From an uncultured delta proteobacterium (GTDB taxonomy: Bacteria > Myxococcota_A > Polyangia > Polyangiales > Polyangiaceae), in assembly GCA_903893335.1 (NCBI GenBank), contig CAITLX010000648.1:1-33716 (forward strand): 33,716 bases of DNA, written 5' to 3'. Positions 125 through 23,367 of this stretch are shown here, in pieces; the first letter of the stretch is position 1, and each line of letters opens with the position of its first letter. The notes beneath the pieces are model-generated. The model ran no database searches. It saw only the letters and a list, made by a program, of their open reading frames with translations, and was not told the origin of the DNA. The position numbers and the translations under genes are program-made.

Positions 125-1675
125 TCAGCGCGACGCGGTCGCGGCGCTCGCGTCGACCAGCCAGAAGCGCCCGCGGTGCGAGAGCAGGCGCGCGTCGCCG
201 GCGCGCTCGCCGAACGTGACGAGGCGCGGATCGTCGGCCGGGTGGTCGTCGGGCGTGCGCACGAGCACCGTCGGGAACCAGCGCGCGTAGTCGCTGTCGA
301 CGTCGTACTTGCGCGCGTCCCACTCGAGCCCGCCCGCGACCTGCGGCGGCCGCGCCTCGGGGCGGTAGTGCACCGGCATCGACTCGAACTTGAGGAACGA
401 GTAGCCGATGAGCCCGCGACGGCGCGCCTGGTAGTACGCGAGCAGGTGCACCCAGCTCTCGCGCAGCACGACGGGCTCGCCGCGCGTCGACCAGGTGACG
501 GCGACGACGCGCGCGCCCTCGGGGATGTCGTCGAGGATGGCGTCGGCGTCGCGCTGGTCGGGCAGGTGCGCGAGGTGCCACGCGGTGTTGAGCCCCGCCG
601 CGAGCGCGAGCGCCGCCGCGATCGGCCGCACGCGCCGCAGCGTCGCTTCGCCCACGAGCGGCGCCGCCGCGACGGCGAACACGAGCGCCCAGGTGGGGAA
701 GCGCTCGAAGATGAACCAGGTCGCGATGAAGACCTTGGGCACCACGCAGTACAGCGCGGCCCATGTGACCGCGAGCGCGCCCAGGACGACGTGCGCCCCC
801 GCGCGCCGCTCGCGCGCCTGGTAGAGCGCGACGAGGGCCACGAGCGCCGCCGCGAGGATCGCCTGGTCGGTGTAGTCGCTGAAGTTGCCGACGGCGAAGG
901 CGGTCGCGTGCAGCAGCTTGTACCAGAGCGGGTCGTCGAGGCCGTCGTCCCAGCCCTCCCAGTTGGCGTGCGACGAGCGCCGGTTGTGCACGAAGACGGT
1001 GATGCACCAGACGAACGCCGGCCAGAGCGGCCACGGGGCGCGCAGCAGCCCGCGCAGGCGCGCGCCCCACGTCGCCCCGAGCGACGACCAGCTCGCGAGC
1101 GCGGCGACGCCGACGCACACGCACAGGCAGAGCGTCACCAGCACGTGCGAGTACGCGAGCACGAACGCGACCGCCGCGAGCCGCGGCAGCATCCCGGGCT
1201 CGCCCCGCCACCAGCGCAGCCACCAGCCGAACGCGAGCAGCGCGATCGGCACGCTCACGAAGTAGTTCGCGAAGCCCCAGCCCACCGCGAAGCTGAAGGT
1301 GATGGGCAGCACGAGCAGCGCGTACCAGCGCGGCCTGCCCGCGATGCGGCAGAGCTCGAGCGCCGCGAGGCCCAGCAGCGGCGGGTAGAGCGAGATGACG
1401 AGCTTGCCGGCCGTCTCGGGCGACACGAGGAACGACAGCGCCGCGACCAGCAGGTGGAACCCGCCGTTGTAGGTCACGAGGTCGACCTCGAAGAGGGCGC
1501 GCTCGGGCGACGCCGGGTCGGCGAGGCGCCGGAGCATCGCGGCGACCGCGACGTGCTGCGGGTAGTCGATGAGCGGCGGGAAGCGCGCGAGCCAGAACGC
1601 CGCCATGAACGCCGCTACCGCCGACCAGAAGGCCACGGTCAACGCGCGCGTCTCGAGGCGGAAGAGGTCGCGCAC
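125..1675 (-). CDS. 516-aa polytopic integral membrane protein with a C-terminal soluble domain; possible GT-C-type transferase, family not recognised
   Basis: GTG start at 1675 with GAGG 8-9 nt upstream, 12 nt after the upstream stop. The first ~390 aa hold many hydrophobic helices (e.g. ALTVAFWSAVAAFMAAFWLA, YALLVLPITFSFAVGWGFANYF, VAFVLAYSHVLVTLCLCVCVGVAALA). A ~125-aa polar C-terminal domain follows. It is the last gene of the sugar operon. Confidence 0.8.
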   Translation of the reverse strand: MRDLFRLETRALTVAFWSAVAAFMAAFWLARFPPLIDYPQHVAVAAMLRRLADPASPERALFEVDLVTYNGGFHLLVAALSFLVSPETAGKLVISLYPPLLGLAALELCRIAGRPRWYALLVLPITFSFAVGWGFANYFVSVPIALLAFGWWLRWWRGEPGMLPRLAAVAFVLAYSHVLVTLCLCVCVGVAALASWSSLGATWGARLRGLLRAPWPLWPAFVWCITVFVHNRRSSHANWEGWDDGLDDPLWYKLLHATAFAVGNFSDYTDQAILAAALVALVALYQARERRAGAHVVLGALAVTWAALYCVVPKVFIATWFIFERFPTWALVFAVAAAPLVGEATLRRVRPIAAALALAAGLNTAWHLAHLPDQRDADAILDDIPEGARVVAVTWSTRGEPVVLRESWVHLLAYYQARRRGLIGYSFLKFESMPVHYRPEARPPQVAGGLEWDARKYDVDSDYARWFPTVLVRTPDDHPADDPRLVTFGERAGDARLLSHRGRFWLVDASAATASR

Positions 1676-1687
1676 CGTCGTGCCTCG

Positions 1688-2506
1688 TCAGCCGGCCGCG
1701 CGAGGCGACGGCGCGCCCGGGCGCTCGAACAGCAGCCACTTGTAGTCGGCGAGGGGCTCGAGCGACGGCGCGAGGTCGAGCAGTCGCTCGCCCGCGTCGA
1801 ACGCGGGGCCGACGAGCGCGTCGGGCAGATCGCGCCACGCGAGCGCGAGCCGAGCGGGGACGAAGCCCATGCCGCCGCGACGCGCGAGCACGAGCCCGGC
1901 GCGCGCCGCGTGCTCGATCCAGGCCTCGACGCCGAGCGGCAGGATGCGCCGCAGCAGGCGCGAGCGGTGGATGGGCTCGAGCAGCAGGAGGCGGCCGCCG
2001 GGGCGCGTGATCGACACGAGGTGCGCGAGCGCGCGGTCGAACGTGGGCACGTCGGCGCAGGCCATCGCCAGGCACGAGATGGTGAAGACGAGATCGAACG
2101 CGCCGACGAGCGCGTCGGGCGGGGGCTCGAGCACGTTCCAGGTGCGGTAGTCGACGGCGAGGCCCGCCGCGCGGGTCTCGCGCTCGGCCGCCGCGAGCGT
2201 CTCGGGGGCGAAGTCGAGCCCGGTGACGCGCGCGCCGCGCGCCGCGAAGTGGCGCGAGAGGCGGCCGGTGCCGCACGCGACGTCGGCGACGCGCTTGCCG
2301 TCGACGTCGCCGAGCACCGAGTCGACGATGGTGCGCTGACGCGCGTCCCAGTGGCGGTTGTACGTGTTGCTCGGCCAGATGCTGCGCGCGAGCCCCTCGT
2401 ACGACGCGGCCTTCATGTCCCAGTAGCGGGGCGAGTCGTAGAGCCCCTGCTTGCTCATGCGGTCGGCGAGCAGCTGGCGGAACGTGCGCCCGGCCTTCGC
2501 GCTCAC
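1688..2506 (-). CDS. Class I SAM-dependent methyltransferase (272 aa)
   Basis: Motif I VADVACGTGRLS followed by VTGLDFAPE. Rossmann-like core DLVFTISCL...ITRPGGRLLLLEP. I chose the GTG at 2506 because it overlaps the upstream TGA as GTGA (2503-2506). An alternative ATG is at 2458. The Arg-rich N-terminal 177 aa of track ORF 1688..3037 lies antisense-free over the ATP-grasp gene and was discarded. Confidence 0.85.
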   Translation of the reverse strand: MSAKAGRTFRQLLADRMSKQGLYDSPRYWDMKAASYEGLARSIWPSNTYNRHWDARQRTIVDSVLGDVDGKRVADVACGTGRLSRHFAARGARVTGLDFAPETLAAAERETRAAGLAVDYRTWNVLEPPPDALVGAFDLVFTISCLAMACADVPTFDRALAHLVSITRPGGRLLLLEPIHRSRLLRRILPLGVEAWIEHAARAGLVLARRGGMGFVPARLALAWRDLPDALVGPAFDAGERLLDLAPSLEPLADYKWLLFERPGAPSPRAAG

Positions 2507-3714
2507 GTCGGCTCCGTGACGATGCGGATGGCCGCCGCCGCGCGCGAGGCGTTCGCCGCGGCGTCGTCGCGATCGAGCCCGTGGGCGAGCACGTGGCCCG
2601 CGCGCTTCGAGCCGTCGGTCAGCGGGTGCACCGTGCCGCCGACCGGCACCCAGACCTCGGCGCCCGCGATGCCGGGCATCGCGCGCGCGGCCTCGAGGCC
2701 CTCGATGCCGACGACGCGCCCCGGCGTGCCGATGAGGAACTTGCCGATGGCGCCGCCGTGCGGCGCGCTCTCGGCGTCGGCGGCCTCCCAGTCGTCGCGC
2801 GCCATCGCGACGCCGAGGATCTTGCGGAAGAGCGACGTGCCGGACGCGAGCCACGCCACGTCGGGGTCGAGGCCACCGCCGAGGCGGTGCGCCGTCTCGA
2901 CGATGAACGCCCCCTTGGGGCCGACGCGCATCTGCGTGTACGAAGGCCCCCGCACGATGCCGAGCGCGCGCGCGCCGAGCACGGCCGCGTCGACGACCTT
3001 CGCCTCGGTCGCCGCGTCGAGGCCCGATGGAAACCACTCGGCGAAGGTGATGCCGGGCGGGTCGGGGTACTCGGTGATGACGCGCTCGGTGACGCTGTAG
3101 ACGCGCGTCTCGCCGGCGCGCGTGTAGGCGTTGACGCTGAACTCGCGCCCCTCGAGGAAGCCCTCGACCATGACGACGCCCGTGCTCGACGCCGCCTGCG
3201 CCGCGGCGAACGACGGCGCGAGCTCGGCGTCGTGCTCGACCTTGGCGACGCCGCGCTGCCCCCAGCCGCGCGACGGCTTCACGATGAGCGGCAGTCCGTG
3301 CTCCGCGCGGAAGCGGGCGAGCTCATCGAGCGTCGTCGCCGCGACGAACACGGGCACGGGCGCGCCGCCGGCCAGGTACGCCGCCCGCATGAGATCCTTG
3401 GACTGGCAGCGGTCGATCGTCGCGACGTCGGCGTAGAACGGCAGGCCGAGCCGCTCGGCGGCGCGCGCCGTCGTGGCGACCGCGACCTCGGAGCCGCACG
3501 ACGCGATGCCCGTCGCGCCGCTCGCGCGAACGGCCGCCGCGATCGCCTCGGGCTCGCCCGTCGAGGCGCGCACGAACGTGTCGCACTCGCGCACGCCGAT
3601 GGCCCCGGGGTTGAGGTCGGCGCCGACGACCTCGAGGCCGAGCGCGCGCGCGTAGCGCAGGAGGCCGAGCTGCGGCGCGCCGCACCCGACGATGAGCACC
3701 CTGCCCTCACCCAT
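2503..3714 (-). CDS. ATP-grasp domain carboxylate-amine ligase (403 aa)
   Basis: N-terminal Rossmann-like RVLIVGCGAPQLGLLRYARALGLEVVG. ATP-grasp core LPLIVKPSRGWGQRGVAKV...VMVEGFLEGREFSVNAY...IVETAHRLGGG. The ATG at 3714 overlaps the GT2 stop (3707-3709) by 8 nt. Confidence 0.9.
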   Translation of the reverse strand: MGEGRVLIVGCGAPQLGLLRYARALGLEVVGADLNPGAIGVRECDTFVRASTGEPEAIAAAVRASGATGIASCGSEVAVATTARAAERLGLPFYADVATIDRCQSKDLMRAAYLAGGAPVPVFVAATTLDELARFRAEHGLPLIVKPSRGWGQRGVAKVEHDAELAPSFAAAQAASSTGVVMVEGFLEGREFSVNAYTRAGETRVYSVTERVITEYPDPPGITFAEWFPSGLDAATEAKVVDAAVLGARALGIVRGPSYTQMRVGPKGAFIVETAHRLGGGLDPDVAWLASGTSLFRKILGVAMARDDWEAADAESAPHGGAIGKFLIGTPGRVVGIEGLEAARAMPGIAGAEVWVPVGGTVHPLTDGSKRAGHVLAHGLDRDDAAANASRAAAAIRIVTEPT

Positions 3715-4651
3715 CGAAGCCGACCTCCTCGGCCACGACGTAGAGCGGGCGCCCCTGGGCCTGGATGAAGATGCGCCCGACGTACTCGCCGATGACGCTG
3801 AGCGCGATGAGCTGCAGGCCGCCGAGGATGACGATGGCCGCGAAGAGGCTCGTGTAGCCCATCGCGATGTCGACCCCGAGCAGCTTCTGGGCGATGCGGT
3901 AGAGGCCGAAGGCGACGCCCGAGAGGGCGACGAGCACGCCGCCCGCGCCGATGATGCGCAGCGGCCGCGTGCTGAAGCCGACCATCAGATCGAACGAGTG
4001 GTTGATGAGCTTGGCGAGGTCGTACTTGGTCGTGCCGCTCGCGCGCGCCGCGTGCCCGACCTCGACGGTCGCCGACCGCGCGCCCGACCACACCGCCAGC
4101 GCGCTGAAGAATTTCTTCTTCTCGGGCAGCCCGGCGATGAGCCGCGCGGTGCGTCCGTCGATGACGCGGAACGTCGTCACGTCGTCCGGGAGCTCGATGC
4201 CGAGCAGCGTGCGCATGCCCCACACCAGCGCGCGCGAGGCGACGACGCGGTGCCAGGGGTCCTTGCGCGCGACGCGCACGCCGTAGACGATCTCGTAGCC
4301 CTCGTCGCGCTTGGCCAGCAGCTTGAGCAGCTCCTCGGGCGGATTTTGCAGGTCGCCATCCATCTGCACGACGAAGCGCCCCGACGACCGGAGGATGCCG
4401 GCCTGCACCGCGGCCTCCTGGCCGTAGTTGCGCGAGAAGCGGACCATGCGCACGCGCGGGTCGGCCGCGGCGAGCGCGCGAAGGAGCGTCGGCGTCTGGT
4501 CGCGGCTGCCGTCGTCGACGAAGACGATCTCGAAGGGCGCGCCCGCGGCCTCGAGCACCGGCACGAGCCGCTCGACGAGCGCGCGCACGTTGCCCTCCTC
4601 GTTGAGCACGGGGATGACGACCGAGTGCTCGATGGGGCCGCGCTCGCTCAC
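3707..4651 (-). CDS. GT2-family polyprenyl-phosphate glycosyltransferase (ArnC/GtrB/DPM1-like, 314 aa)
   Basis: Motifs SVVIPVLNEEGNV, FVDDGSRD and QMDGDLQNPPEEL. Two C-terminal TM helices (IIGAGGVLVALSGVAFGLY and TSLFAAIVILGGLQLIALSVIG). The GTG at 4651 overlaps the upstream TGA as GTGA (4648-4651). Confidence 0.9.
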   Translation of the reverse strand: MSERGPIEHSVVIPVLNEEGNVRALVERLVPVLEAAGAPFEIVFVDDGSRDQTPTLLRALAAADPRVRMVRFSRNYGQEAAVQAGILRSSGRFVVQMDGDLQNPPEELLKLLAKRDEGYEIVYGVRVARKDPWHRVVASRALVWGMRTLLGIELPDDVTTFRVIDGRTARLIAGLPEKKKFFSALAVWSGARSATVEVGHAARASGTTKYDLAKLINHSFDLMVGFSTRPLRIIGAGGVLVALSGVAFGLYRIAQKLLGVDIAMGYTSLFAAIVILGGLQLIALSVIGEYVGRIFIQAQGRPLYVVAEEVGFDG

Positions 4652-5799
4652 GGCGCGCCCCCTTGGGCTTCGTCGATCGACGCGCGCAGGGCCTCGACCA
4701 CCCGCGCCGCCTGCGCGTCGGAGAGCGAGGGGTAGAGCGGCAAGGACAGCGTGCGCTCGCCGATCGACGCCGCGTGCGGCAGCGCGTCGCGAGCGAGGGC
4801 GAAGCGCTCGCGGTAGTAGGTGAGCGTGTGCACGGCGCGGTAGTTGACCGCGACGCCGACGCCGCGTCGCCCGAGCCCCGCGAGCACGGCGTCGCGCAGC
4901 CGCGCGTCGACGAGCACCGGGAAGAGGTGGTGACCCGAGCGGCCGACGCGCGCCATCGGCGTGACGCGAGGGTCGGACGCCAGCGCGGCCTCGTAGCGCG
5001 CGACGACGGCCTCGCGCTGGTCGCGCCGCCGCGCGAGCCCGGGCACCTGCGGAAGCAGCAGGGCCGCCTCGACGTCGGTCATGGCCGCCTTGTAGCCGAG
5101 CTCGACCATGTCCCAGTGCGCGTACGGGGCGCCGTGGCGCGCCGCGGCGTCCTTCGTCATGCCGTGCGAGCGCAGCAGCCGCAGGCGCTCGGCCAGCCTC
5201 GGGTCGCGCACGGCGACCGCGCCGCCGTCGCCGGAGGTGATCGTCTTGGTGGCGTAGAAGCTGAAGACGGTGGCGTCGCCGAGCTCGGCGGTGCGGACGC
5301 CGTCGCGCTCGGCCTCGATCGCGTGCGCGGCGTCCTCGACGAGCGCGACGCCGTGGCGGTCGGCGATGGCCCGCAGCGCGCGCATGTCGGCGAGCTGGCC
5401 GTAGAGGTGCACGGCGACGATGGCGCGGGTGCGCGGCGTGATCGCGGCCTCGACGGCGGCGGGATCGATGAGCCCCGTGGCGGGGTCGACGTCGGCGAAC
5501 ACCGGCGTCGCGCCGAGGTGCAGCGCCGCGTTGGGCGTCGCGACGAACGTCATCGGGGTCGTGACGACCTCGTCGCCCGGCCCGACGCCGAGGGCGCGCA
5601 GCGCAAGGATGAGCCCGAGGGAACAGCTGGAGACGCCCACGACGTGCGGCGCGCCGAGCCACGCGCCGAACGCGCGCTCGAACTCGGCCACGCGCGGGCC
5701 GAGCGTGAGAAACAGGCTGCCGACGGTCTGGGCGACCGACGCCAGCTCGGCGTCGCCCAGCTCGTGGACGTAGAACTCGATGCGGTCGGGCTGCGACAT
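4648..5799 (-). CDS. DegT/DnrJ/EryC1/StrS (ArnB-like) PLP-dependent sugar aminotransferase (383 aa)
   Basis: Internal ATG at 5799 gives MSQPDRIEFYVHELGDAEL. Family pattern VGVSSCSLGLILALRALGVGPGDEVVTTPMTFVATPNA. PLP-lysine context FSFYATKTITSGDGGA. The upstream 267 aa of the track ORF are Arg/Ala-rich shadow sequence. Confidence 0.9.
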   Translation of the reverse strand: MSQPDRIEFYVHELGDAELASVAQTVGSLFLTLGPRVAEFERAFGAWLGAPHVVGVSSCSLGLILALRALGVGPGDEVVTTPMTFVATPNAALHLGATPVFADVDPATGLIDPAAVEAAITPRTRAIVAVHLYGQLADMRALRAIADRHGVALVEDAAHAIEAERDGVRTAELGDATVFSFYATKTITSGDGGAVAVRDPRLAERLRLLRSHGMTKDAAARHGAPYAHWDMVELGYKAAMTDVEAALLLPQVPGLARRRDQREAVVARYEAALASDPRVTPMARVGRSGHHLFPVLVDARLRDAVLAGLGRRGVGVAVNYRAVHTLTYYRERFALARDALPHAASIGERTLSLPLYPSLSDAQAARVVEALRASIDEAQGGAP

Positions 5800-5810
5800 G
5801 GCGTGGGCGC

Positions 5811-6848
5811 TCAGGACAGCACGCGACCGTCCATCGCCACGTCGTTCCAGGTGCGCTCGACCTCCGCGAGGAACATGTACTGCCGCAGCGTGTACCAGCG
5901 GCGATCGTCCGGATCGATGGCGCCCGACTGCAAGACCTCGAGGATCTCGTCGATGCCGTCCTCGATGGTGCGGGTGGGCGACCAGTCGAGCACCTCCTTC
6001 ACGCGCTCGAACGCGACGTTGTAGTCGCGCAGATCGGGGTCGGTCGACGCCATGACGATCTCGGTGCCCGGCACGCGGTCGCGCACGCGGTACGCGAGGT
6101 TGACGATGCGCACGTTGTTGGCGGTCGAGCCGATGTTGACCACCTGGCCGGCGACGCGCTCGCGCGGCGCGAGCAGCGTGCGGTGCACCGCCTCGGCGAT
6201 GTCGCGCACGTGGGCGAACGGGCGCCACTGCTTGCCGCCGCCGTCGACGGTGATCTTGCGCGAGGTGTACGCGTTCTTCGTCATGACGTTGACCGCGAGG
6301 TCGAAGCGCATGCGGCGCGAGAGGCCGAACACGGTGGCGAAGCGCAGCGCGGTGACGGTGATGCCCGTGGCGCGCGCGAGCTCGAAGAGGTGCGCCTCGG
6401 CGTCGGCCTTGCATCGCGCGTAGAGCGAGACGGGGCGCAGCGGCGAGGCCTCGGAGAGCGCCAGGCCGTCGCCGTGACCGTAGACGCTGCACGACGAAGC
6501 GAACACGATCCGCGACGCGCCGGCCGCCTGCGCGAGCCGCGCCACGCGCGCGGAGCCCTCGAGGTTGACGCTGCGGGTGAGCTCCGCGTCCAGCTCGCAC
6601 GAGGGGTCGTTCGAGATGCCGGCGAGGTCGACCAGCCCCTCGATGCCCTCGAACACGCGCGGGTCGACGCGGCGCACGTCGGCGCGCACCAGGCGGAGGC
6701 GCTCGCCGTGCGCGGCGCGCGCGGCGTCGAGCGAGCTCTCGCCGAAGTAGAAGCGGTCGACGACGGTGACGTCGTGGCCAGCCTCGAGCAACACGGGGAC
6801 GAGGGTCGAGCCGATGTAGCCGGCTCCGCCGGTGACGAGGACGCGCAT
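5811..6848 (-). CDS. Extended-SDR NAD-dependent sugar epimerase/dehydratase (345 aa)
   Basis: MRVLVTGGAGYIGS (GxxGxxG), ASSCSVYG, and YARCK (YxxxK). ATG at 6848. It is the first gene of the minus-strand operon. Confidence 0.9.
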   Translation of the reverse strand: MRVLVTGGAGYIGSTLVPVLLEAGHDVTVVDRFYFGESSLDAARAAHGERLRLVRADVRRVDPRVFEGIEGLVDLAGISNDPSCELDAELTRSVNLEGSARVARLAQAAGASRIVFASSCSVYGHGDGLALSEASPLRPVSLYARCKADAEAHLFELARATGITVTALRFATVFGLSRRMRFDLAVNVMTKNAYTSRKITVDGGGKQWRPFAHVRDIAEAVHRTLLAPRERVAGQVVNIGSTANNVRIVNLAYRVRDRVPGTEIVMASTDPDLRDYNVAFERVKEVLDWSPTRTIEDGIDEILEVLQSGAIDPDDRRWYTLRQYMFLAEVERTWNDVAMDGRVLS

Positions 6849-6940
6849 CGCGCGGCTTCTTACAAGACCCGGGCCCGCGTGGGAACCGGCGAGCCCCCGC
6901 CGGGCACCCGGACCGAACGGGTTACCCCCGACGTGCCCGG

Positions 6941-6970
6941 TTGGCAGGCCCGCGGCGAGGGGAGTATGCT
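6941..6970 (+). promoter_or_regulatory. Possible sigma-70-type promoter for the 7045 gene (TTGGCA-N18-TATGCT)
   Basis: TTGGCA at 6941-6946 and TATGCT at 6965-6970, inside the 196-bp divergent intergenic region. Identified by pattern match only. Confidence 0.25.
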
Positions 6971-7044
6971 GGTCGCGCCTTGAAACGGGGGGGTGTGCGG
7001 CACGGCATCGCGCCGGGCTCTCCCCACGCGGAGGCGAACCCTCG

Positions 7045-8049
7045 ATGCATGCCGTCGTCCACAGGCCGTCCGTCGCACCTGCGTGGGATTTCCCCACCGT
7101 GCTGGGGCAGCCGCTCATCGTGCGCCAGGTCGCGTGGCTGCGCGCGGTCGGCTGCACGCGCATCCTCGTCGAGGTGCACGCGGACCCGGCGGGCTTCGCG
7201 GTCGCCCGCTGGCTCGGCAGCCACGCGCCCGGAAGCTGCGACGTCGAGCTCGTCACGACCCCGCGCCCCCGCGGGCACGAGCAGGTCGCGCGCCGAGCCG
7301 GGCTGGCCGCCGGAACGCCGTACCTCGCGCTGCCCTCCGACGTCCTGGCCGACGCCGACCTCGCGCAGGTGCTCCGGTCGTCACGCGGCGACGGCGCGCG
7401 CGTGCTGCTCTGGTCGCCCGCCGGCGCGCGCGCGACGAGCGTGCTCATCCCCGTCGTCGGCCGCGCTCGCGAACCCGCGATCGTCGCCGGCGCGGGCTGG
7501 GCCGCCACCCTGCGCTCGCGGCGCGACGCGGTCGCGCTCGCCGACCTCGCCCTGATGGGGCGCCTGCCGCTCGACGGCCCCTGCCCGGTCACGCCGGTCG
7601 GCGCGGTCACGTCATCACCGCTCCCGCTCGCGTGGGTGGCTCCCACCGCGCACGTCGCGTCGACCGCCGAGCTGTTCGGGGCGGTCTACGTCGGCCCCGG
7701 CGCCTTCGTGGGTCCCGGCGCGCGGGTCGGTCCGAGCGTGCACGTCGGCGCTGGCGCGCGCATCGAGGCCGGAGCGCGCGTCGAGGAGGCGTGGGTCGAG
7801 GACGGCGCGACCGTCGAGCCGAGCGCGACGATCCTGCACGCCTCGCACGGACCGCAGGGAGCCGCCTCCCTCGACGACGGCGAGCCGGCGACGTTCGGCG
7901 ACACGCTGCTGTCGCGCCACAGCACGCCCTCCGCGCCGCGACGCGCGGGCTCACTGCTCGGCCGCGCGTTCGCCTGGCTCGAGCAGCCGGTCAGCGCGCT
8001 CGGCGGCCTCGAGACCCGCGACGACGCTTCGCGCCTGCGGCGCGCCTGA
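7045..8049 (+). CDS. Nucleotidyltransferase-like N-domain plus left-handed beta-helix (hexapeptide) C-domain protein; the canonical NTP-binding signature looks degenerate (334 aa)
   Basis: ATG at 7045 with GGAGG at 7030-7034. The N-terminus MHAVVHRPSVAPAWDFPTVLGQPLIVRQVAWLRAVGCTRILVEV resembles the sugar-1-P nucleotidyltransferase layout. Hexapeptide-like run VYVGPGAFVGPGARVGPSVHVGAGARIEAGARVEEAWVEDGATVEP. Confidence 0.75.
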   Translation: MHAVVHRPSVAPAWDFPTVLGQPLIVRQVAWLRAVGCTRILVEVHADPAGFAVARWLGSHAPGSCDVELVTTPRPRGHEQVARRAGLAAGTPYLALPSDVLADADLAQVLRSSRGDGARVLLWSPAGARATSVLIPVVGRAREPAIVAGAGWAATLRSRRDAVALADLALMGRLPLDGPCPVTPVGAVTSSPLPLAWVAPTAHVASTAELFGAVYVGPGAFVGPGARVGPSVHVGAGARIEAGARVEEAWVEDGATVEPSATILHASHGPQGAASLDDGEPATFGDTLLSRHSTPSAPRRAGSLLGRAFAWLEQPVSALGGLETRDDASRLRRA

Positions 8050-8090
8050 CGTTTGACGACCGGGCGGCCCCGCACGTCATCGCGTTGACG
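8047..8090. promoter_or_regulatory. Cluster of four TGACG/CGTCA pentamers; candidate activator or regulator binding region
   Basis: TGACG at 8047-8051, 8054-8058 and 8086-8090, and CGTCA at 8075-8079. The 8054/8075 pair forms TGACG-N16-CGTCA. The cluster lies 63-106 bp upstream of the sigma-54-like element. Confidence 0.3.
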
Positions 8091-8152
8091 CGCCGAGCCG
8101 CCGCGGCGCGGCCCAGACGCGAAACGCCGGGAGAGTTGCCCAAGCTCCGCGC

Positions 8153-8168
8153 TGGCAAGTTTCCTGCA
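8153..8168 (+). promoter_or_regulatory. Sigma-54 (RpoN) type -24/-12 promoter candidate
   Basis: TGGCAAG-TTTC-CTGCA compared with the consensus TGGCACG-N4-TTGCA. The GG and GC dinucleotides are at the correct 10-nt separation. The element is 102 nt upstream of the ATG at 8270. Confidence 0.4.
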
Positions 8169-8269
8169 AAAGCGTCGGCGAAGAGACCGCTCCCCTCCCG
8201 CCCGGGGGGTGAGCCCGTTGCCCTGGCAGAGCGCGCGTCGCGCTCGTCCGGACCTTCGCGAGGCCCCCG

Positions 8270-9133
8270 ATGTCCGAGTCGCTCAAGCCCATCCACCACC
8301 ACAACCCCGAAGCGATGGACGACGACCAGCTCCGCGCCGAGGCGCGCATTTTCCTGGCCAAGTCCCCTCCGTTGCAGATCGTCGCCGAGCTGCTCGGCAA
8401 GCTGCGCTCGATGCAGCTGCCCTGGTGGACGTCGGACTACACGCACGAGACCTGGAACGCGATGCAGCGCATGCACTGGTACTCGCCGCGCGCCGATCTC
8501 CGCCAGCAGATCACGACGACGCTCACGGGCCTCGCGCCCAAGGCTGCGCGCAAGCGGTGGCCGAACTCCCAGGCCGAGCTCGTCGAGGCCGTCATCGAGG
8601 GGGGCGACATCACCTCGGCCCAGTTCGAGGAGGCGTACGACCCGTGCGACATGGTCGTGTACGGCCCCGCCGCCGAGTTCTGGTGGCGGTTCCGCGAGCG
8701 CATGCCGTGGGAGGAGGACTCCGCGACGCACAAGAAGCTCGCGGCGTGGCTCATGCGCGCGCTGCTCTCCGATCGCAGCTCGATCGAGGGGCTCAGCCGC
8801 CGCCCGGTGCTGTCGGCGTGGGACGTGCGCAACGCGATCGACCCCGCGGCGTGGCAGCGCTACCTGCCCGCCGAGGTGCGCGTCGCGATCGACGAGGCGC
8901 GCCTGCGCCAGGAGCGCCAGCGCCCGCGCGACCCGTACCACGCGCGCCACGAGCTCGCGGTGGCGACGCCGGAGATCATCACGACGCACACGCCCGTCGC
9001 CGAGCTCACCATGGTGTTCGCCCACGCCGAGAAGGCGATGGGCTTCGAGGCCTGCCCGACCCGCTCGCAGAGCGACGTCGAGTTCCTCGGCTCGCCGCCG
9101 GTCGCGTCGCTGTCGATCCTCGCGACGGGCTGA
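8270..9133 (+). CDS. Hypothetical cytoplasmic protein, Trp-rich, no family recognised (287 aa)
   Basis: ATG start, balanced protein-like composition, and 11 Trp by my count (PWWTSDY, EFWWRF, MPWEED and others). HHH near the N-terminus. No signal peptide or TM segment. Confidence 0.75.
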   Translation: MSESLKPIHHHNPEAMDDDQLRAEARIFLAKSPPLQIVAELLGKLRSMQLPWWTSDYTHETWNAMQRMHWYSPRADLRQQITTTLTGLAPKAARKRWPNSQAELVEAVIEGGDITSAQFEEAYDPCDMVVYGPAAEFWWRFRERMPWEEDSATHKKLAAWLMRALLSDRSSIEGLSRRPVLSAWDVRNAIDPAAWQRYLPAEVRVAIDEARLRQERQRPRDPYHARHELAVATPEIITTHTPVAELTMVFAHAEKAMGFEACPTRSQSDVEFLGSPPVASLSILATG

Positions 9134-9143
9134 CGCCCGCGGC

Positions 9144-9172
9144 CACGAGGCCGCGCTACGCTCGGCCTCGTG
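9144..9172 (+). promoter_or_regulatory. Perfect 10-bp stem / 9-nt loop hairpin whose 3' arm contains the GTG start of the sulfurtransferase gene
   Basis: CACGAGGCCG (9144-9153), loop cgctacgct, and CGGCCTCGTG (9163-9172). The start codon is at 9170-9172. Confidence 0.5.
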
Positions 9173-10027
9173 ATCCCCTCCCCGCTCGTCGACGTCGACT
9201 GGCTCGCGGCGCACGCCGCGCGCGACGACGTCCGCATCGTCGATTGCCGATGGAGCCTCTCCGGCCCACCCGCGGCCGAGGCGTACGCGCGCGGGCACCT
9301 GCCTGGCGCCGCGTTCGTCGATCTCGACCTCGAGCTCGCGGCGCCTCGCGGGCAGGGCCCAGGTCGCCACCCGATCCCCCGCGCCGAAGACTTCGCGCGG
9401 GTGCTCGCGCGCCTCGGCGTGCGCGCCGAGACGCGGGTCGTCGGGTACGACGACGTCGGCGGCGCCATCGCCGCGCGCCTCTGGTGGCTGCTGCGCCATT
9501 TCGGTCACGGCGGCGGGCGCGTGCTCGACGGCGGGCTGCAAGCCTGGACCGCGAGCGGCCGACCGCTCGACACCGAAGCGCCGACGATCGCCCCCGCAGC
9601 GCCGCTCGCGCTCACCGCGGGGCACGCTCCCGTGGTCGACAAGCGGCAGGTCGATCTTCTGCGCCGCGACCCGACCGCGCGCGTGGTCGATGCGCGCGCG
9701 CGCGAGCGCTACGAGGGTCGAAGCGAGCCGGTCGACGCGCGCCCCGGGCACATCCCCGGCGCGCTCGCGGCGCCGTTCGTGGAGAACCTCGTCGCCCCCG
9801 GCGGTCGCTTCGCGCCGCTCGACGCGCTGCGCGCGCGCTACGCCGCGCTCGGCTTGCTCGACGCGCGCGCCGTCGTCTGCTCGTGCGGCTCCGGGGTCAC
9901 CGCGTGCCACGATCTGCTCGCGCTCGCGCTGCTCGGCCGCGACGACGCGGCGCTCTACGAGGGCTCGTGGAGCGACTGGGCCGCGGACGCGAGCCTGCCC
10001 GCCGCAACGGGAATCGAGCCGGGCTGA
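9170..10027 (+). CDS. sseA: Tandem-rhodanese 3-mercaptopyruvate/thiosulfate sulfurtransferase (285 aa)
   Basis: Two rhodanese halves. N-terminal VDVDWLAAH...VRIVDCRW...GHLPGA. Active-site loop VCSCGSGVTACH (CGSGVTA is the MST-type signature). C-terminal YEGSWSDW. Confidence 0.9.
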   Translation: MIPSPLVDVDWLAAHAARDDVRIVDCRWSLSGPPAAEAYARGHLPGAAFVDLDLELAAPRGQGPGRHPIPRAEDFARVLARLGVRAETRVVGYDDVGGAIAARLWWLLRHFGHGGGRVLDGGLQAWTASGRPLDTEAPTIAPAAPLALTAGHAPVVDKRQVDLLRRDPTARVVDARARERYEGRSEPVDARPGHIPGALAAPFVENLVAPGGRFAPLDALRARYAALGLLDARAVVCSCGSGVTACHDLLALALLGRDDAALYEGSWSDWAADASLPAATGIEPG

Positions 10028-10049
10028 GAAGCGCGCCGCCGCGGACCTG

Positions 10050-10086
10050 CGCCGCGCGATGACGCGCGGCGTTATTCGCCTTTTCC
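10050..10086 (+). terminator. Rho-independent terminator candidate
   Basis: Perfect 9-bp GC stem: CGCCGCGCG (10050-10058), loop ATGA, CGCGCGGCG (10063-10071). The stem is followed by TTATTCGCCTTTTCC. Confidence 0.6.
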
Positions 10087-10120
10087 AGACGAGGCTCGGT
10101 CGCGTGTAACGTGAGGAGCG

Positions 10121-11404
10121 ATGAGCGCGACCTCCTCGGCGACCGCGATCCGCCGCAACCCCCTCGCCCAGGGCTGGCGAGGGCGCGCCGCCGTGGCCGC
10201 CCTCGTGGCCGCGGCCCTCGCGCTGTTCGCCACCGCCGCGAGGAGCGACCCCGCGGCGCTCGGCTGGCTGCGCGCGCACCGCTGGCTGGCCGCGCTGGGG
10301 CTGTTCGGCGGCACGCTGGCCGCGCTCGCGGCGACGTACGTCGCGCTGCGCCGGCGCGACCCTTCGCGCGCCGAGCTCGTCGTGCGCGCGACGCACGTGG
10401 TGCCGATCGTCGCGCAGGTCATCCTCTTCTCGTACTGGACGGCGTACTGGCCGCAGCTGGGTCGATGGCTGCCGTTCCTCTTCGCGCTCGTCGCGTTCGC
10501 GCTCGCGACCGACGCGACGATGAGCTGGATCGTGCGCCACCGCCTCGTGCTCGGCTTCGGCCCGGTGCCCATCACGCTCGGCATGCACCTGTTCGCGCAG
10601 TTCTCGCCGGTCGACTGGCACGCGCCCGCCGCGATGCTGCTGCTCGCGATCGGGTCGAAGGCGCTCGTCTCGCGCGACGGCCACCCGCTGGTCAATCCCT
10701 CCGCGTTCGGCCTCGCGTGCGTCGGCGCCGCGACGCTGGTCGCGCCCGCCGTCGGCTACGGCGACGTGGCGTTCCGCTTCAACCTGCCGCCGAGCATGAC
10801 CGAGCTCATCCTGCTGGTGACGCTGCTGCCGCAGATCCGTCAGCCCATCGTGCTCGTCTCCATCGGCGCCTTCCTCGGCAACGAGCTCACCCACTACGCC
10901 TTCGGCTTCAGCGAGTTCCGCGCGGCGTGGGCTCCGGTGACGCTCGGCCTCGCGCTCTTCGCGACCGACCCCGCGACCACGCCGCGGCGCAACCCCGGCC
11001 GCCTTCTCTTCGGCGTCGCGTACGGCGTGGCGATGGTGAGCCTCGCGCACGCGCTCGAGGCGAGCGGGCGCTCGGACTTCTACGCGAAGGTCATCCCGAT
11101 CCCGCTGCTCAACGTCCTCGCGCCGACGTTCGACCGGCTCGGCGACGCCCTCGTCGCCGCCCGCCCCCGCCTCGCGCGCGCGCTCGAGCCTCGCTGGAAC
11201 CTCGCGCACATCGCGGCCTGGGTGCTCGTCATCACGCTGGGGCTCGTGGGGCAGAAGGAGCGCACGTTCCTCGCCGACCAGCACACGACCGAGCAGACGC
11301 GCGGCGTCCGCCGCGACGCGCGGGGCGAGATCACCTGCGAGCTGAACCGCCCCTGGTGTCGCCCCTGGGACATCGGCGGCGAGATCGCCACCTGGGTGCG
11401 CTGA
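10121..11404 (+). CDS. RnfD/NqrB-family-like polytopic membrane protein, not adjacent to any other Rnf/Nqr subunit (427 aa)
   Basis: GAGGAG lies 2-8 nt upstream of the ATG at 10121. Motifs HPLVNPSAFG and LFATDPATTPR resemble the family FNPAAFG and MATDPVT(S)P blocks. About 9-10 TM helices. Polar ~70-aa tail with two Cys (ITCELNRPWCRPW). Confidence 0.75.
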   Translation: MSATSSATAIRRNPLAQGWRGRAAVAALVAAALALFATAARSDPAALGWLRAHRWLAALGLFGGTLAALAATYVALRRRDPSRAELVVRATHVVPIVAQVILFSYWTAYWPQLGRWLPFLFALVAFALATDATMSWIVRHRLVLGFGPVPITLGMHLFAQFSPVDWHAPAAMLLLAIGSKALVSRDGHPLVNPSAFGLACVGAATLVAPAVGYGDVAFRFNLPPSMTELILLVTLLPQIRQPIVLVSIGAFLGNELTHYAFGFSEFRAAWAPVTLGLALFATDPATTPRRNPGRLLFGVAYGVAMVSLAHALEASGRSDFYAKVIPIPLLNVLAPTFDRLGDALVAARPRLARALEPRWNLAHIAAWVLVITLGLVGQKERTFLADQHTTEQTRGVRRDARGEITCELNRPWCRPWDIGGEIATWVR

Positions 11405-11421
11405 CGCGCGCGCGTCAGCGC
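11398..11421. terminator. 24-bp perfect palindrome spanning both stop codons of convergent genes; bidirectional terminator candidate
   Basis: GCGCTGACGCGC|GCGCGTCAGCGC. It contains the plus-strand TGA (11402-11404) and the minus-strand TGA (complement of 11415-11417). Confidence 0.45.
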
Positions 11422-12536
11422 GGCAGGGGGAGCAGCGGCAGCACTGCGTCGGCGAGGCTCTGCGCGATGCGCTCGTGGCCCGCGGCGTTGGGGTGCGTCA
11501 CGTCGAAGCGCTCGTTCGGCTTGGCGTAGCGGCGCGGATCCTCGCCGCGGAACGCGTCGGCCACGCGCGCGACGGCGAAGCCCTGCGCCCGCGCGACGCT
11601 CTGCACCTGGTCGTAGAGCCCGAGGCAGATGGGGTCGTCGAAGCGCTCGACGATGGGCAGCGGCGCGACGAGCACGCGGAAGCCGTCGGCCTCGGCGAGG
11701 AGCCGCAGGCGCTCGAGCGACTGGCGCACCACGAGGTCGAACGAGTAGCCCTGGTGCATCGGCGCGAAGAGGCCGCACATCGAGCCCCCCGCGAGGTGCT
11801 GCGCGAGCGGCCCGAGCGTGAAGGTGAAATAGCTGTTGCCCATGCGGCGGTAGGCGCCGTTCTGCAGGAACGGGTCGTTGAGCACGTAGGCGACGACGAC
11901 GAGGTCGGGGCGGTACTTGCGGCCGACCGTCTCGAAGAGCCGCACCTCTTGCTGCGTGTTGTACCCCTCGCACGAGACGTTCATGACCTCGACGCGACGC
12001 CCGGCCGGAGCCCGCTCGGCGAGCAACGCCTCGAGCCGCCGCGGAAACCGAGCCTCGAACGCGATGGAGCCGTCGTTCGGGACCGAGTCGCCGAGCACCA
12101 CCACGCGCCAGGTGTCCGCGCGCCGCTCGAGCGCGTGCGGGAGATCCCACAGCCCCTCGGGCGTGACGTCGGGCTCCGCCGCGTCGGGCAGGCGGCTCGG
12201 CATGGGCCCAGGGCGGTAGCGGTAGCGCAGCAGAGGGTCGCTCGTGACCTCGAGGCGCTGCGAGGTCGCGCCCCGCGAGGCGAGCCTGGCCTCGTACGCG
12301 ACCAGGCCCACCGGCACGGCGAGCGCGAGGGTGAAGCAGACGGTGCGCGCAGCCGACGCGCGCAGCAGCACGCCCGCGGCGAACACCGCGAGCGCGCCGA
12401 GCACGAGCGGGTGAAACGGGTCGGGCAGCACGAAGTCCGCGTCGCGCGCGTGCACCGCCCAGGCCTCGACGGCCGCGACCGCGCCGAGGAACGCGAGGAC
12501 GACCGAGGCCCCCACCGTGCGCGGACCTTGCGGCAT
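11415..12536 (-). CDS. Membrane-anchored SGNH/GDSL-family hydrolase (373 aa)
   Basis: ATG at 12536. Three N-terminal hydrophobic segments. SGNH blocks VVVLGDSVPNDG (block I), NVSCEGYN, AYVLNDP, and DVTHPNAAGH (DxxH). Confidence 0.85.
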   Translation of the reverse strand: MPQGPRTVGASVVLAFLGAVAAVEAWAVHARDADFVLPDPFHPLVLGALAVFAAGVLLRASAARTVCFTLALAVPVGLVAYEARLASRGATSQRLEVTSDPLLRYRYRPGPMPSRLPDAAEPDVTPEGLWDLPHALERRADTWRVVVLGDSVPNDGSIAFEARFPRRLEALLAERAPAGRRVEVMNVSCEGYNTQQEVRLFETVGRKYRPDLVVVAYVLNDPFLQNGAYRRMGNSYFTFTLGPLAQHLAGGSMCGLFAPMHQGYSFDLVVRQSLERLRLLAEADGFRVLVAPLPIVERFDDPICLGLYDQVQSVARAQGFAVARVADAFRGEDPRRYAKPNERFDVTHPNAAGHERIAQSLADAVLPLLPLPR

Positions 12537-12640
12537 GCGAGGTCGCGTACCATGCGCGAAACACGCGTCGCAAGCCGTCGCGCCGCGCGACCGGCGAAGG
12601 CGAGCGCTCCCGACGAAGGGCCGGGGCCACGCGCGCGAGC

Positions 12641-12669
12641 TTGACGGCCGAGCGCCGGGCGACTGTTCT
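12641..12669 (+). promoter_or_regulatory. Possible promoter TTGACG-N17-TGTTCT, only 8 nt ahead of the ATG at 12678
   Basis: TTGACG at 12641-12646 and TGTTCT at 12664-12669. There is no Shine-Dalgarno sequence between the -10 element and the ATG. Confidence 0.2.
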
Positions 12670-12677
12670 CCCGCCCC

Positions 12678-13106
12678 ATGCACGACGCCCTGCTCATCGC
12701 GCACTTCCTCGGACTCGCGCTCGGCCTCGGCGCGAGCTTCGCCAGCCTCACCCTCGGCCTCGCCACGCGCGAGCTGCCCGCCGACGAGCGGACGCGCCTG
12801 CTCGTGCGCGCGCTCGCGCTCGGCAAGAACGCGAGCGCGGGCCTCGCGCTGCTGATCGTGAGCGGAACCGCGATGCTCCTCCTGCGCGGCGTCGGCCCGA
12901 CGTTCGCCGCAGCGGGCGGCGCGCTGCACGCCAAGCTGACGCTCGTCGTCGTGATCGTCGGCCTCTTCGGCTACCAGCAGGTGCTCGGCAAGCGAGCGCG
13001 CGTGGCCGGCGGCGGACCCGCGCTGGCCCGCGCCGCGACGGTCGGCCGGACCCTGCTCGCGACCACCGTGGCGACCGTCGTTCTGGCCGTCCTCGCCTTT
13101 CACTGA
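12678..13106 (+). CDS. Small 4-TM membrane protein of unknown function (142 aa)
   Basis: Four hydrophobic helices (LLIAHFLGLALGLGASFASLTLGL, AGLALLIVSGTAMLLL, LTLVVVIVGLFGY, LLATTVATVVLAVLAF). Good third-position G/C bias. Confidence 0.7.
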   Translation: MHDALLIAHFLGLALGLGASFASLTLGLATRELPADERTRLLVRALALGKNASAGLALLIVSGTAMLLLRGVGPTFAAAGGALHAKLTLVVVIVGLFGYQQVLGKRARVAGGGPALARAATVGRTLLATTVATVVLAVLAFH

Positions 13107-13126
13107 ACGCGCGGCGCCCGATCCAG

Positions 13127-13155
13127 TTGACGAGTCCCGTCGGGTCCGTCATATT
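13127..13155 (+). promoter_or_regulatory. Sigma-70-type promoter candidate TTGACG-N17-CATATT upstream of the small ORF and rpsT
   Basis: TTGACG at 13127-13132 and CATATT at 13150-13155. The -10 element sits in a locally A/T-richer patch. Confidence 0.4.
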
Positions 13156-13227
13156 GCGCGCCCTTTCCGGTGGACGGGCGTGCCGCACATGGCACCCGCG
13201 GCCGCCCCCCCGAGCCGCGAGATCACC

Positions 13228-13398
13228 ATGGTTTCCTCGACGCAGCAGTTCGACCGCATCCGCAAGCGCAAGGCCACGAAGAACGGCAAGTGGAACAAGC
13301 GCGCGCGCCGCCGAATCGGCACGCCCGCCTTCGCCGTTCACCCCGAGGGGTACGACCCCAAGGCGGCCGACTCGCGCCCCACCGCTTCTCAGAAGTAA
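13228..13398 (+). CDS. Small basic protein (56 aa) immediately upstream of rpsT; function unknown
   Basis: Sequence MVSSTQQFDRIRKRKATKNGKWNKRARRRIGTPAFAVHPEGYDPKAADSRPTASQK. Nearly all third positions are G/C. TAA stop at 13396-13398, 15 nt before the rpsT ATG. Alternative in-frame starts are the GTG at 13180 and the ATG at 13189. Confidence 0.45.
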   Translation: MVSSTQQFDRIRKRKATKNGKWNKRARRRIGTPAFAVHPEGYDPKAADSRPTASQK

Positions 13399-13413
13399 GA
13401 GCAGGATCCCGAC

Positions 13414-13761
13414 ATGGCCAACCACGCATCCGCCGAGAAGCGCAACCGTCAGCGCATCAAGCGCACCACGACCAACCGCAGCGTCAAGGCCGCGGTCCGT
13501 ACGATCGTCAAGAGCACGCGCGCCGCGATCGAGCAGGGCGGAGCCGACACGAAGGCTGCCGTGAGCAAGGTCGCCAGCGCCGTCGATCGCGCCGCCTCCA
13601 AGGGCACGCTCCACAAGAAGAAGGCCTCGCGCACCAAGGCTCGCATCGCGCGCGCCGCGTACAAGGCCTCCAAAGCCTCCGCGGCCTCCACGGCCTCCAC
13701 GGCCGCCAAACCCGCGAAGTCCGCCAAGCCCGCCAAGCCCGCGAAGCCCGCCAAGGCCTGA
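13414..13761 (+). CDS. rpsT: 30S ribosomal protein S20 with a ~33-aa Ala/Lys/Pro/Ser C-terminal extension (115 aa)
   Basis: MANHASAEKRNRQRIKRTTTNRSVKAAVRT... is a typical S20 N-terminus. The tail is KASKASAASTASTAAKPAKSAKPAKPAKPAKA. Confidence 0.95.
   Translation: MANHASAEKRNRQRIKRTTTNRSVKAAVRTIVKSTRAAIEQGGADTKAAVSKVASAVDRAASKGTLHKKKASRTKARIARAAYKASKASAASTASTAAKPAKSAKPAKPAKPAKA
13705..13758 (+). repeat. Six in-frame 9-bp GCC-AAG-CCC-type repeats encoding (AK[PSA])x6 at the S20 C-terminus
   Basis: gcc aaa ccc / gcg aag tcc / gcc aag ccc / gcc aag ccc / gcg aag ccc / gcc aag gcc. Confidence 0.85.

Positions 13762-22224: not shown

Positions 22225-23367
<1,143 letters not shown>

Follow-up and report, generated by a model that had tools for sequence, protein, structure and literature searches.

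A putative lipid-carrier glycosylation operon with an ATP-grasp ligase and a methyltransferase in uncultured Myxococcota

The stretch of DNA analysed here, called the window, is a contig of 33,716 nucleotides from an uncultured member of the Polyangiaceae (Myxococcota; GenBank assembly GCA_903893335.1, contig CAITLX010000648.1). Near its start six closely packed minus-strand genes probably encode a three-component periplasmic glycosylation system, the donor of which would be an N-acylated, methylated 4-amino sugar; we put the probability of this reading at roughly 0.55. The architecture of the proposed system is well supported, and the reading rests on the gene structure, the family and fold assignments of the six proteins, the conserved linkage of their genes in related genomes, and a natural fusion between a flippase-type domain and the GT-C-fold membrane protein in a variant of the operon. 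With an ATP-grasp ligase and a methyltransferase in donor synthesis and a GT-C protein outside the existing family models, the block appears to be an undescribed variant of Arn/Gtr-type lipid-carrier glycosylation. The six genes, in the order of transcription, are:

5811-6848, minus strand: extended short-chain dehydrogenase/reductase (SDR), 345 aa, proposed nucleotide-sugar C4 oxidase supplying the 4-keto sugar
4648-5799, minus strand: DegT/ArnB-type pyridoxal-phosphate-dependent aminotransferase, 383 aa, proposed C4 transaminase
3707-4651, minus strand: GtrB/ArnC-type glycosyltransferase of family 2 (GT2), 314 aa, predicted polyprenyl-phosphate glycosyltransferase
2503-3714, minus strand: ATP-grasp carboxylate-amine ligase of the L-amino-acid-ligase type, 403 aa
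1688-2506, minus strand: class I S-adenosylmethionine (SAM)-dependent methyltransferase, 272 aa
125-1675, minus strand: polytopic GT-C-fold membrane protein, 516 aa

Structure of the gene block

Because the GC content of the window is about 74%, spurious frames dominate the raw lists of its open reading frames (ORFs). Gene models were derived from a plot of the GC content at third codon positions, from inspection of start codons and from an independent gene caller based on codon usage (log-odds), and the three approaches gave the same six minus-strand genes (125-6848). Starting from the SDR gene, the junctions are an 11-nt gap, a 4-nt overlap between the aminotransferase stop and the GT2 start, an 8-nt overlap of the ATP-grasp gene with the GT2 stop, a 4-nt overlap of the ATP-grasp gene with the methyltransferase start, and a 12-nt gap before the membrane protein gene. 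This is the packing, with overlaps of 4-8 nt and gaps of 12 nt or less, that had been read from the sequence in the original prediction. It is not the product of chance, because the gene order and junctions with a median of -4 nt recur in dozens of relatives.

The gene models fill the block and leave no room in it for a formyltransferase, a deformylase or a small flippase gene. Formyltransferase and ArnD domains were found neither in the six proteins (Pfam, NCBIfam) nor as a recurring feature of the related loci described below, in agreement with the earlier statement that the first two of these enzymes are missing from the block. The sole non-coding gap of more than 12 nt that borders the block lies upstream of it:

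6849-7044: divergent intergenic region, presumed promoter region, upstream of the operon

A consensus scan did not find the operon promoter here, the one sigma-70-like site that it returned being on the other strand. The search for promoters and terminators was uninformative as a whole, and the Rfam and tRNA scans were empty.

Conservation in related genomes

Relatives of the ATP-grasp protein were scanned, with one genome per species, which yielded 52 loci. All 52 come from metagenome-assembled genomes (MAGs) of Myxococcota, mostly Polyangia, and none from an isolate; the operon has so far been seen in uncultured Myxococcota alone. Gene families in the loci were called by tblastn, by clustering and finally by profile hidden Markov models (HMMs) on six-frame ORFs.

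The GT2 gene was found directly upstream of the ATP-grasp gene in all 42 informative loci, and the methyltransferase gene followed it in 41 of 43. The order and strand of these three genes are constant, with median junctions of -4 nt, at ATP-grasp identities of 46-68%. The SDR and aminotransferase genes precede the triad in 32 of the 47 loci with upstream sequence. The gene for the GT-C-fold protein is linked in 17 of the 52 loci; its position, downstream or upstream, and its strand vary. The conserved unit is the GT2-ATP-grasp-methyltransferase triad, and the SDR/aminotransferase pair and the GT-C gene are separable modules. Conservation of the six-gene block as a unit, which had been proposed for testing, holds as far as synteny in relatives is concerned, but what is invariant is the triad and not the set of six. 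The block moves as a unit, because the flanking genes differ between loci.

Two contigs of one MAG (CAYVRP01; loci L018 and L020) carry apparently identical SDR-aminotransferase-GT2-ATP-grasp-methyltransferase-LPG_synthase_TM blocks with the same flanks, which reflects either a recent duplication or redundancy of assembly or binning. Other genes next to the operon in relatives (IF-1, sigma-54 activator, HAD, PLD-like) gave no functional lead, and neither did the MFS, DUF2961, ATE and histidine kinase genes found there.

The two glycosyltransferases

The GT2 protein belongs to the Pfam family Glycos_transf_2. It aligns over its full length with GtrB of Synechocystis (5EKP, 3e-59) and with ArnC structures (9HWJ, 9BHC and 8VXH, about 1e-51). 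The NCBIfam scores, 209 bits for PgfS and 200 bits for ArnC, are below the cut-offs (529 for ArnC). The protein has the motif DGDLQNPPEE at residues 98-107, and two hydrophobic stretches in its C-terminal region are consistent with two transmembrane (TM) helices. From these features, which had already led to an ArnC/GtrB assignment and are now joined by the alignments, it is predicted to be a polyprenyl-phosphate glycosyltransferase of the GtrB/ArnC/DPMS type.

The membrane protein matched no Pfam or NCBIfam model and, at the sequence level, no PDB entry, a profile search of the PDB sequences giving noise alone. Its TM region spans about 370 aa, and the C-terminal domain (about 145 aa) is soluble. 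A model built with AlphaFold2 (AF2) from an alignment of 61 homologues had a mean local confidence (pLDDT) of 94.2 and a predicted template-modelling score (pTM) of 0.93. When the model was compared with the PDB by Foldseek, the eight best matches were all GT-C enzymes at a probability of 1.00: ArnT (5EZM) was first (E 1.1e-5, TM-score 0.54), followed by STT3/PglB, DPY19, AftA, EmbB, ALG3 and PimE. Transporters were matched at a probability below 0.1. The model identifies the protein as a probable GT-C-fold glycosyltransferase, as had been proposed, with ArnT as the nearest structure; a transporter fold, the outcome named at the time as speaking against a transferase, was not seen. With the Pfam and NCBIfam matches of the other five proteins, all six family or fold assignments of the original prediction are borne out.

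Residues P34, D37, Q40 and H41 (within PPLIDYPQH) are invariant in the 61 sequences and stand directly after the first TM helix, D37 being 8 residues past its end (helix 10-29). GT-C enzymes usually carry a catalytic acid in the loop after this helix. The Arg-rich N-terminus suggests an inside orientation, which would make the D37 loop periplasmic.

An exhaustive profile search, counted in representatives of 50%-identity clusters, found 8,854 relatives of the membrane protein at E<=1e-3 and 1,019 at E<=1e-30; a word-index search had given just 101. All the members looked up were unnamed or 'hypothetical', and ten sampled distant members were likewise devoid of any GT-C Pfam domain. The protein belongs to a new GT-C family for which Pfam and NCBIfam hold no model.

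The 553-aa protein of L037, protein U572 of L005, protein c16 of L030 and a neighbouring gene product in L004 were considered as divergent copies of the GT-C protein, but hhalign detected no similarity. The U572 family (L005:5025-6743, L014, L025:7511-9280) and the c16 family (L030:15059-16522, L007, L052, L058, L059) consist of polytopic proteins of about 500-590 aa without a Pfam match, which recur beside the operon or beside the GT-C gene and have acidic motifs in an early loop (FPFTDDEW and DLDTDAYGHH, respectively). They could be alternative or additional GT-C-like transferases. Since loci without this GT-C often carry U572 or c16 nearby, the donor module may serve several transferases.

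Flippase candidates in relatives

In 20 loci the methyltransferase gene is followed by a gene for an LPG_synthase_TM protein (PF03706, the flippase-type domain of MprF), and in 17 by a TauE/SafE gene (PF01925). The TauE/SafE ('sulfite exporter') genes are exemplified by L022:2538-4186 and, among the loci with the triad only, by L041:11084-11842. Results of tblastn and clustering disagreed on L022, and the profile census settled that it carries both kinds of gene; because TauE coexists there with LPG_synthase_TM, it may not be a simple alternative flippase. A sulfonate link for TauE, suggested by the taurine in the peptidylamido sugar of Clostridioides difficile, is pure speculation. The clade that includes the window (with L001, L008, L011 and the partial loci L002, L009 and L010) has neither gene, and there the GT-C gene directly follows the methyltransferase gene.

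One variant is a protein of 872 aa (P0225), in which an LPG_synthase_TM domain (residues 24-312) is fused to the GT-C described here (residues 346-866). It was found, identical, in two independent samples (L060:9782-12400 and L061:880-3498), and its gene is the last of an SDR-aminotransferase-GT2-ATP-grasp-methyltransferase operon. A Rosetta-stone fusion of this kind speaks for a shared lipid-linked intermediate, with the MprF-type domain as its flippase and the GT-C as its transferase.

Proposed enzymes of sugar supply

The SDR matches the Pfam family Epimerase (PF01370, 151 bits). Among solved structures it is nearest to 6VO6 (4.5e-41), and UDP-GlcNAc 4-epimerases and the human UDP-glucuronate decarboxylase UXS1 come next; we take 6VO6 to be Cj1427, a GDP-heptose C4 dehydrogenase that releases a 4-keto sugar. 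The motif S118-S119-C120-S121-V-Y-G and Y143xxxK147 are kept in 28 of 29 operon SDRs. The segment S119-C120-S121 aligns with T-S-E of UXS1 (STSEVYG), so that a Ser, likewise kept in 28 of 29, occupies the place of the Glu. The score against the NCBIfam ArnA model was 28.9 bits, with a cut-off of 777. Because the decarboxylase Glu is replaced by Ser, the enzyme is unlikely to be a decarboxylase of the ArnA/UXS type, and on this point the originally proposed likeness to the Arn pathway fails. The SDR also lacks the Asp-Glu pair of the 4,6-dehydratases (TDEVYG).

One locus departs from the common arrangement. In L025 (6458-7471) the usual SDR is replaced by a dTDP-glucose 4,6-dehydratase-like protein (330 bits), encoded after the methyltransferase gene, and the aminotransferase gene is on the opposite strand; the sugar of this locus may be a 4-amino-4,6-dideoxyhexose. 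C4 aminotransferases classically receive their NDP-4-keto sugars from dTDP-glucose 4,6-dehydratase. Since L025 swaps in an enzyme resembling it, the replacement supports the supply of a 4-keto sugar as the likely job of the operon SDR.

The aminotransferase is a member of DegT_DnrJ_EryC1 (PF01041, 381 bits), and its top PDB matches are ArnB structures (8SNG, 1MDO and 4OCA, E about 1e-72), ahead of perosamine synthases. The NCBIfam scores, 312 bits for PseC and 282 bits for ArnB, are both below the equivalog cut-offs (631 for ArnB), and the protein is therefore predicted to act as a sugar aminotransferase of the C4 type without being an orthologue of ArnB.

The ATP-grasp ligase and the methyltransferase

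The ATP-grasp protein exceeds the Pfam cut-offs for ATP-grasp_4 (41 bits, cut-off 27) and LAL_C2 (71.4 bits, cut-off 29.4), and its best PDB sequence match is the L-amino-acid ligase BL00235 (3VOT, 5e-18). Foldseek comparison of its AF2 model (pLDDT 94.6) returned 4DIM and 3VOT at a TM-score of about 0.8 (0.81-0.82 for 3VOT), as well as BacD and RizA; PurT and biotin carboxylases likewise reached about 0.8. The identity to L-amino-acid ligases is just 14-22%. In its predicted domain architecture, a core followed by the C-terminal domain specific to L-amino-acid ligases, the protein falls in the L-amino-acid-ligase branch, and by analogy it could plausibly N-acylate the amine of a sugar.

The methyltransferase scored above the cut-offs of Methyltransf_25 (59 bits), Methyltransf_11 (52 bits) and Methyltransf_12 (52 bits), was also matched by Methyltransf_31, and gave 32 bits with NNMT_PNMT_TEMT (cut-off 25). 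These Pfam scores indicate a Rossmann-type SAM-binding domain. Its relatives in the PDB are weak (UbiG, 1e-11; CalS10, 1.6e-5). Methylation of the sugar or of its acyl group would be a plausible activity, again by analogy.

Proposed pathway

The identity of the sugar, the substrates of the ATP-grasp ligase and of the methyltransferase, the order in which these two and the GT2 act, and the acceptor are what we infer from the above data, and the following scheme is to be read accordingly. The SDR, which has no decarboxylase signature, would oxidise a nucleotide sugar at C4 and release the 4-keto sugar, from which the ArnB-like aminotransferase would make a 4-amino-4-deoxy sugar. The ATP-grasp ligase would activate a carboxylate, most likely that of an amino acid, as an acyl phosphate and link it to the amine by an amide bond. 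In the Arn pathway an unfavourable transamination becomes productive through N-formylation, and the N-acylated donor is what ArnC uses; amide ligation could play the same role here by pulling the transamination forward and creating the substrate of the GT2. The methyltransferase may then methylate the sugar or the acyl group, and the GtrB/ArnC-type GT2 would load the sugar onto polyprenyl phosphate. After flipping of the lipid-linked sugar, for which the MprF-type LPG_synthase_TM protein is the candidate in relatives, the ArnT-like GT-C would pass the sugar, on the periplasmic side, to an acceptor in the envelope. It is the Arn pathway that suggests placing the ATP-grasp step before the GT2, and the ligase could equally well acylate the sugar once the GT2 has linked it to the lipid.

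Evidence against the scheme and alternative explanations

Several observations weigh against this scheme and are considered here together with the explanations that compete with it. PurT, a formate-dependent ligase, is structurally as near to the ATP-grasp protein as some L-amino-acid ligases are, and because of this closeness the acyl group may be small. The protein might even be a PurT-like ligase for formate or a small carboxylate that replaces the formyltransferase domain of ArnA in an Ara4N-type (4-amino-4-deoxy-L-arabinose) pathway to a cationic aminosugar, the methyltransferase being an extra. PurT structures are among the best structural matches (TM-score 0.78-0.83), but the LAL_C2 score of 71 bits (cut-off 29) points to an L-amino-acid ligase, as does the top PDB match by sequence. 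Similarly, NCBIfam PurT models match the N-terminal half of the protein (6e-9), but PurT was absent from the phmmer list at E<=1e-3. The ArnB-like and ArnC-like partners flanking the ATP-grasp gene would fit such a pathway, as would the lack of linked genes dedicated to making an amino acid. However, an ArnD-like deformylase was found neither in the block nor in the locus of any relative, and making a pentose would require the decarboxylase Glu that the SDR does not have. On balance we regard a PurT-like ligase as unlikely.

A second difficulty is posed by a clade of 15 loci that have the triad with TauE, and no SDR, aminotransferase or GT-C gene within 8-9 kb. Either these genes lie elsewhere in the genome, or the ATP-grasp ligase needs no 4-amino group. 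The latter would be expected if the ligase amidated the carboxylate of the sugar itself, a uronic acid, and the 4-amino group were a separate decoration or absent. Such an enzyme would resemble the amidoligase of ATP-grasp type known from the HS:2 capsule of Campylobacter jejuni. According to the family description in PMC11641026, the sugar can be either of the two partners in ATP-grasp chemistry. The ATP-grasp tree tells against this explanation: the triad-only clade is a single branch nested among branches that bear the SDR and aminotransferase genes, and L045 and L050 combine these two genes with TauE. Both facts suggest that the clade arose by one relocation event and does not represent a different pathway. 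The identity of the GT2 to that of the window is also similar in the triad-only clade (58-62%) and in the clades with SDR and aminotransferase (57-71%), and no UDP-glucose dehydrogenase gene is linked to the operon. We consider amidation of a uronic acid quite unlikely.

The GT-C gene is linked to the operon in just a third of the loci and also occurs alone (L003, L004, L007). Moreover, HMMs of LPG_synthase_TM and TauE run over the whole window detected no flippase candidate, and the operon of the window clade lacks a flippase gene; the earlier statement that no flippase is encoded is correct for this clade and wrong for most relatives, in which LPG_synthase_TM, TauE or both follow the methyltransferase. 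MprF-type domains flip aminoacylated lipids, and PF03706 is described in Pfam as the membrane region of lysyl-phosphatidylglycerol synthase. It could be argued that the pathway ends with the glycoconjugate of polyprenyl phosphate, or of another lipid phosphate, that the three triad enzymes make, and that LPG_synthase_TM or TauE exports it as an aminoacylated glycolipid of the surface, with the GT-C as an optional addition. This would account for the loci, about two thirds, in which the GT-C is missing and an export or flippase candidate is usually present; many of these loci have other polytopic proteins, U572 and c16, nearby, however. The GT-C gene is translationally coupled in the window clade, its product is fused to LPG_synthase_TM in L060, and the products of GtrB/ArnC-type enzymes are known as donors, not as end products (PMC11127046). 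A glycolipid end product seems no likelier to us than amidation of a uronic acid.

That the ATP-grasp ligase and the methyltransferase are unrelated passengers, acting on a small molecule or a peptide and present in the operon by chance, is very unlikely: neither enzyme has a characterised close relative, but the GT2 gene is upstream in 42 of 42 loci and the methyltransferase gene downstream in 41 of 43, with constant order and strand at 46-68% identity and junctions of -4 nt.

Returning to the N-acylated, methylated 4-amino sugar, three further points have to be set on the debit side. The homologues are, without exception, unnamed proteins of MAGs or metagenomes, the methyltransferase has no informative relative in the PDB comparison, and the analogy with ArnT gives no acceptor. 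Sorangium cellulosum So ce56, an isolate of the Polyangiaceae, was described as lacking lipopolysaccharide (Keck et al. 2011, as cited in PMC12971839), for which reason lipid A is not to be assumed. A more far-reaching version of the scheme would make the product, an aminoacyl (peptidylamido), methylated 4-amino sugar on polyprenyl phosphate, the first carrier-lipid-linked sugar found to be tailored by an ATP-grasp amino-acid ligase, with an MprF-type flippase acting on polyprenyl cargo, a GT-C from a very large unrecognised family and, because at least part of the lineage lacks lipopolysaccharide, an acceptor other than lipid A. We regard this combination as tentative, possible rather than probable.

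Genomic surroundings

The neighbours of the operon in the window are genes for a divergent hexapeptide-repeat protein, a rhodanese, ribosomal protein S20 (rpsT), an acetyl-CoA synthetase, an outer-membrane efflux protein, a sulfate ATP-binding cassette (ABC) transporter, acyl-CoA dehydrogenases and a hybrid histidine kinase. The block is located outside any O-antigen or exopolysaccharide locus, the kind of location that had been named as a possible objection to a new pathway. The divergent gene is:

7045-8049, plus strand: hexapeptide-repeat (left-handed beta-helix, LbH) protein, divergent from the operon

This protein has weak LbH matches to the C-terminal parts of mannose-1-phosphate guanylyltransferase (ManB), GlmU and LpxD. 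It was rejected as a part of the system, the matches being weak and no homologue being found beside the operon in the related loci searched.

In L001 the operon sits between rpsT and rpmG-mreBCD-pbp2-rodA. There rpsT adjoins the operon (L001:4075-4740 was compared); in the window it is 6.5 kb away (13399-13761). About six genes lie between the operon and rpsT in the window (6849-13761), coding for the hexapeptide-repeat protein, the rhodanese and several membrane proteins; the latter have no confident Pfam match, two of them giving weak matches below threshold. These genes look like an insertion relative to L001.

Further downstream in the window, at 17779-21359 and 22159-25237, lie an ABC transporter cluster of the sulfate/thiosulfate type and a pair of acyl-CoA dehydrogenase genes; the cluster encodes a binding protein, two permeases and an ATPase that has TOBE and CysA_C domains. 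The hybrid histidine kinase (1,102 aa) is encoded at 25266-28574. None of these genes has an evident link to the operon.

Significance

Glycosylation with polyprenyl-phosphate monosaccharides underlies polymyxin resistance (Ara4N), O-antigen seroconversion, glycosylation of teichoic acids and synthesis of mycobacterial arabinan. To our knowledge, the described periplasmic glycosylation systems all use simple or lightly modified sugars. If the proposed scheme is true, ATP-driven amide ligation and methylation would be added to the making of the donor, and donor chemistry would be extended to peptidyl-type sugars. The work also points to a large GT-C family (8,854 cluster representatives), of which no tested member is covered by a Pfam or NCBIfam model, and to a possible new role of MprF-like flippase domains, for which the natural fusion speaks. 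The envelope modification would be specific to the Polyangia, a group with an unusual and poorly known outer membrane chemistry.

Comparison with known systems

A combination of ArnC-like, ArnT-like and ATP-grasp proteins was not found described in the literature searched, in line with the original remark that this set of genes was not recognised as a described pathway. Its parts have counterparts in several systems. With the Arn system (PmrHFIJKLM, which places Ara4N on lipid A) the operon shares an ArnB-like aminotransferase, an ArnC-like GT2, an ArnT-like GT-C as the presumed final transferase and, in the proposed scheme, an N-acylation step between transamination and transfer. Unlike Arn, it has no folate-dependent (N10-formyl-tetrahydrofolate) formyltransferase, no ArnD and no ArnE/F, and has an ATP-grasp ligase and a methyltransferase instead. 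Its SDR is without the decarboxylase Glu and lacks the catalytic Ser/Thr-Glu pair of the C-terminal domain of ArnA, a UDP-glucuronate C4 oxidase/decarboxylase. The GT-C shows no sequence similarity to ArnT/PMT_2, the likeness being at the level of the fold, and the equivalog scores are without exception far below the cut-offs.

The three-component systems (GtrA/GtrB/Gtr*; polyprenyl-phosphoribose synthase with a MATE flippase and GT136; CsbB/GtcA/YfhO) follow the same GT2-flippase-GT-C logic, and they use flippases from varied families (PMC11127046). In the present operon, by contrast, the donor would be tailored by four dedicated enzymes, including the ATP-grasp ligase. The flippase candidates of the relatives are LPG_synthase_TM and TauE/SafE, not GtrA, SMR or MATE proteins, the operon of the window clade has no flippase gene, and the GT-C is from an unmodelled family.

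The type B flagellin glycan of C. difficile contains an aminosugar capped by a taurine/Ala/Gly peptide, and mutants showed that the glycan requires a GT2-family transferase and a PF13535 ATP-grasp protein; an FdtB-like aminotransferase is also encoded in the locus but could not be mutated (PMC5207245, PMC5207246). That locus (GT3, the ATP-grasp protein CDR20291_0245 and the FdtB-like CDR20291_0247) resembles the proposed scheme in that an aminosugar made by a DegT-family enzyme is amide-capped by amino acids. It differs in serving cytoplasmic O-glycosylation of flagellin in a Firmicute, in using Fuc3N (C3 amine), and in lacking a GT-C, a flippase and a GT2 of the polyprenyl-phosphate type with TM helices at its C-terminus.

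ATP-grasp ligases are also known to join amino acids to aminonucleosides, and the peptidyl-nucleoside ligases couple a carboxylic acid to a nucleophile via an acyl-phosphate intermediate (PMC11641026). The L-amino-acid ligases BL00235, BacD/YwfE and RizA have the same ATP-grasp plus LAL_C2 architecture as the operon protein, which superimposes on BL00235 with a TM-score of about 0.8; the operon protein is only 14-22% identical to them and is embedded in a putative envelope-glycosylation operon. With MprF, finally, the operons of relatives share the LPG_synthase_TM domain, encoded as a stand-alone protein or, in one variant, fused to the GT-C. These proteins differ from MprF in having no aminoacyl-tRNA-dependent synthase domain, and their presumed cargo would be a polyprenyl-phosphate sugar rather than phosphatidylglycerol.

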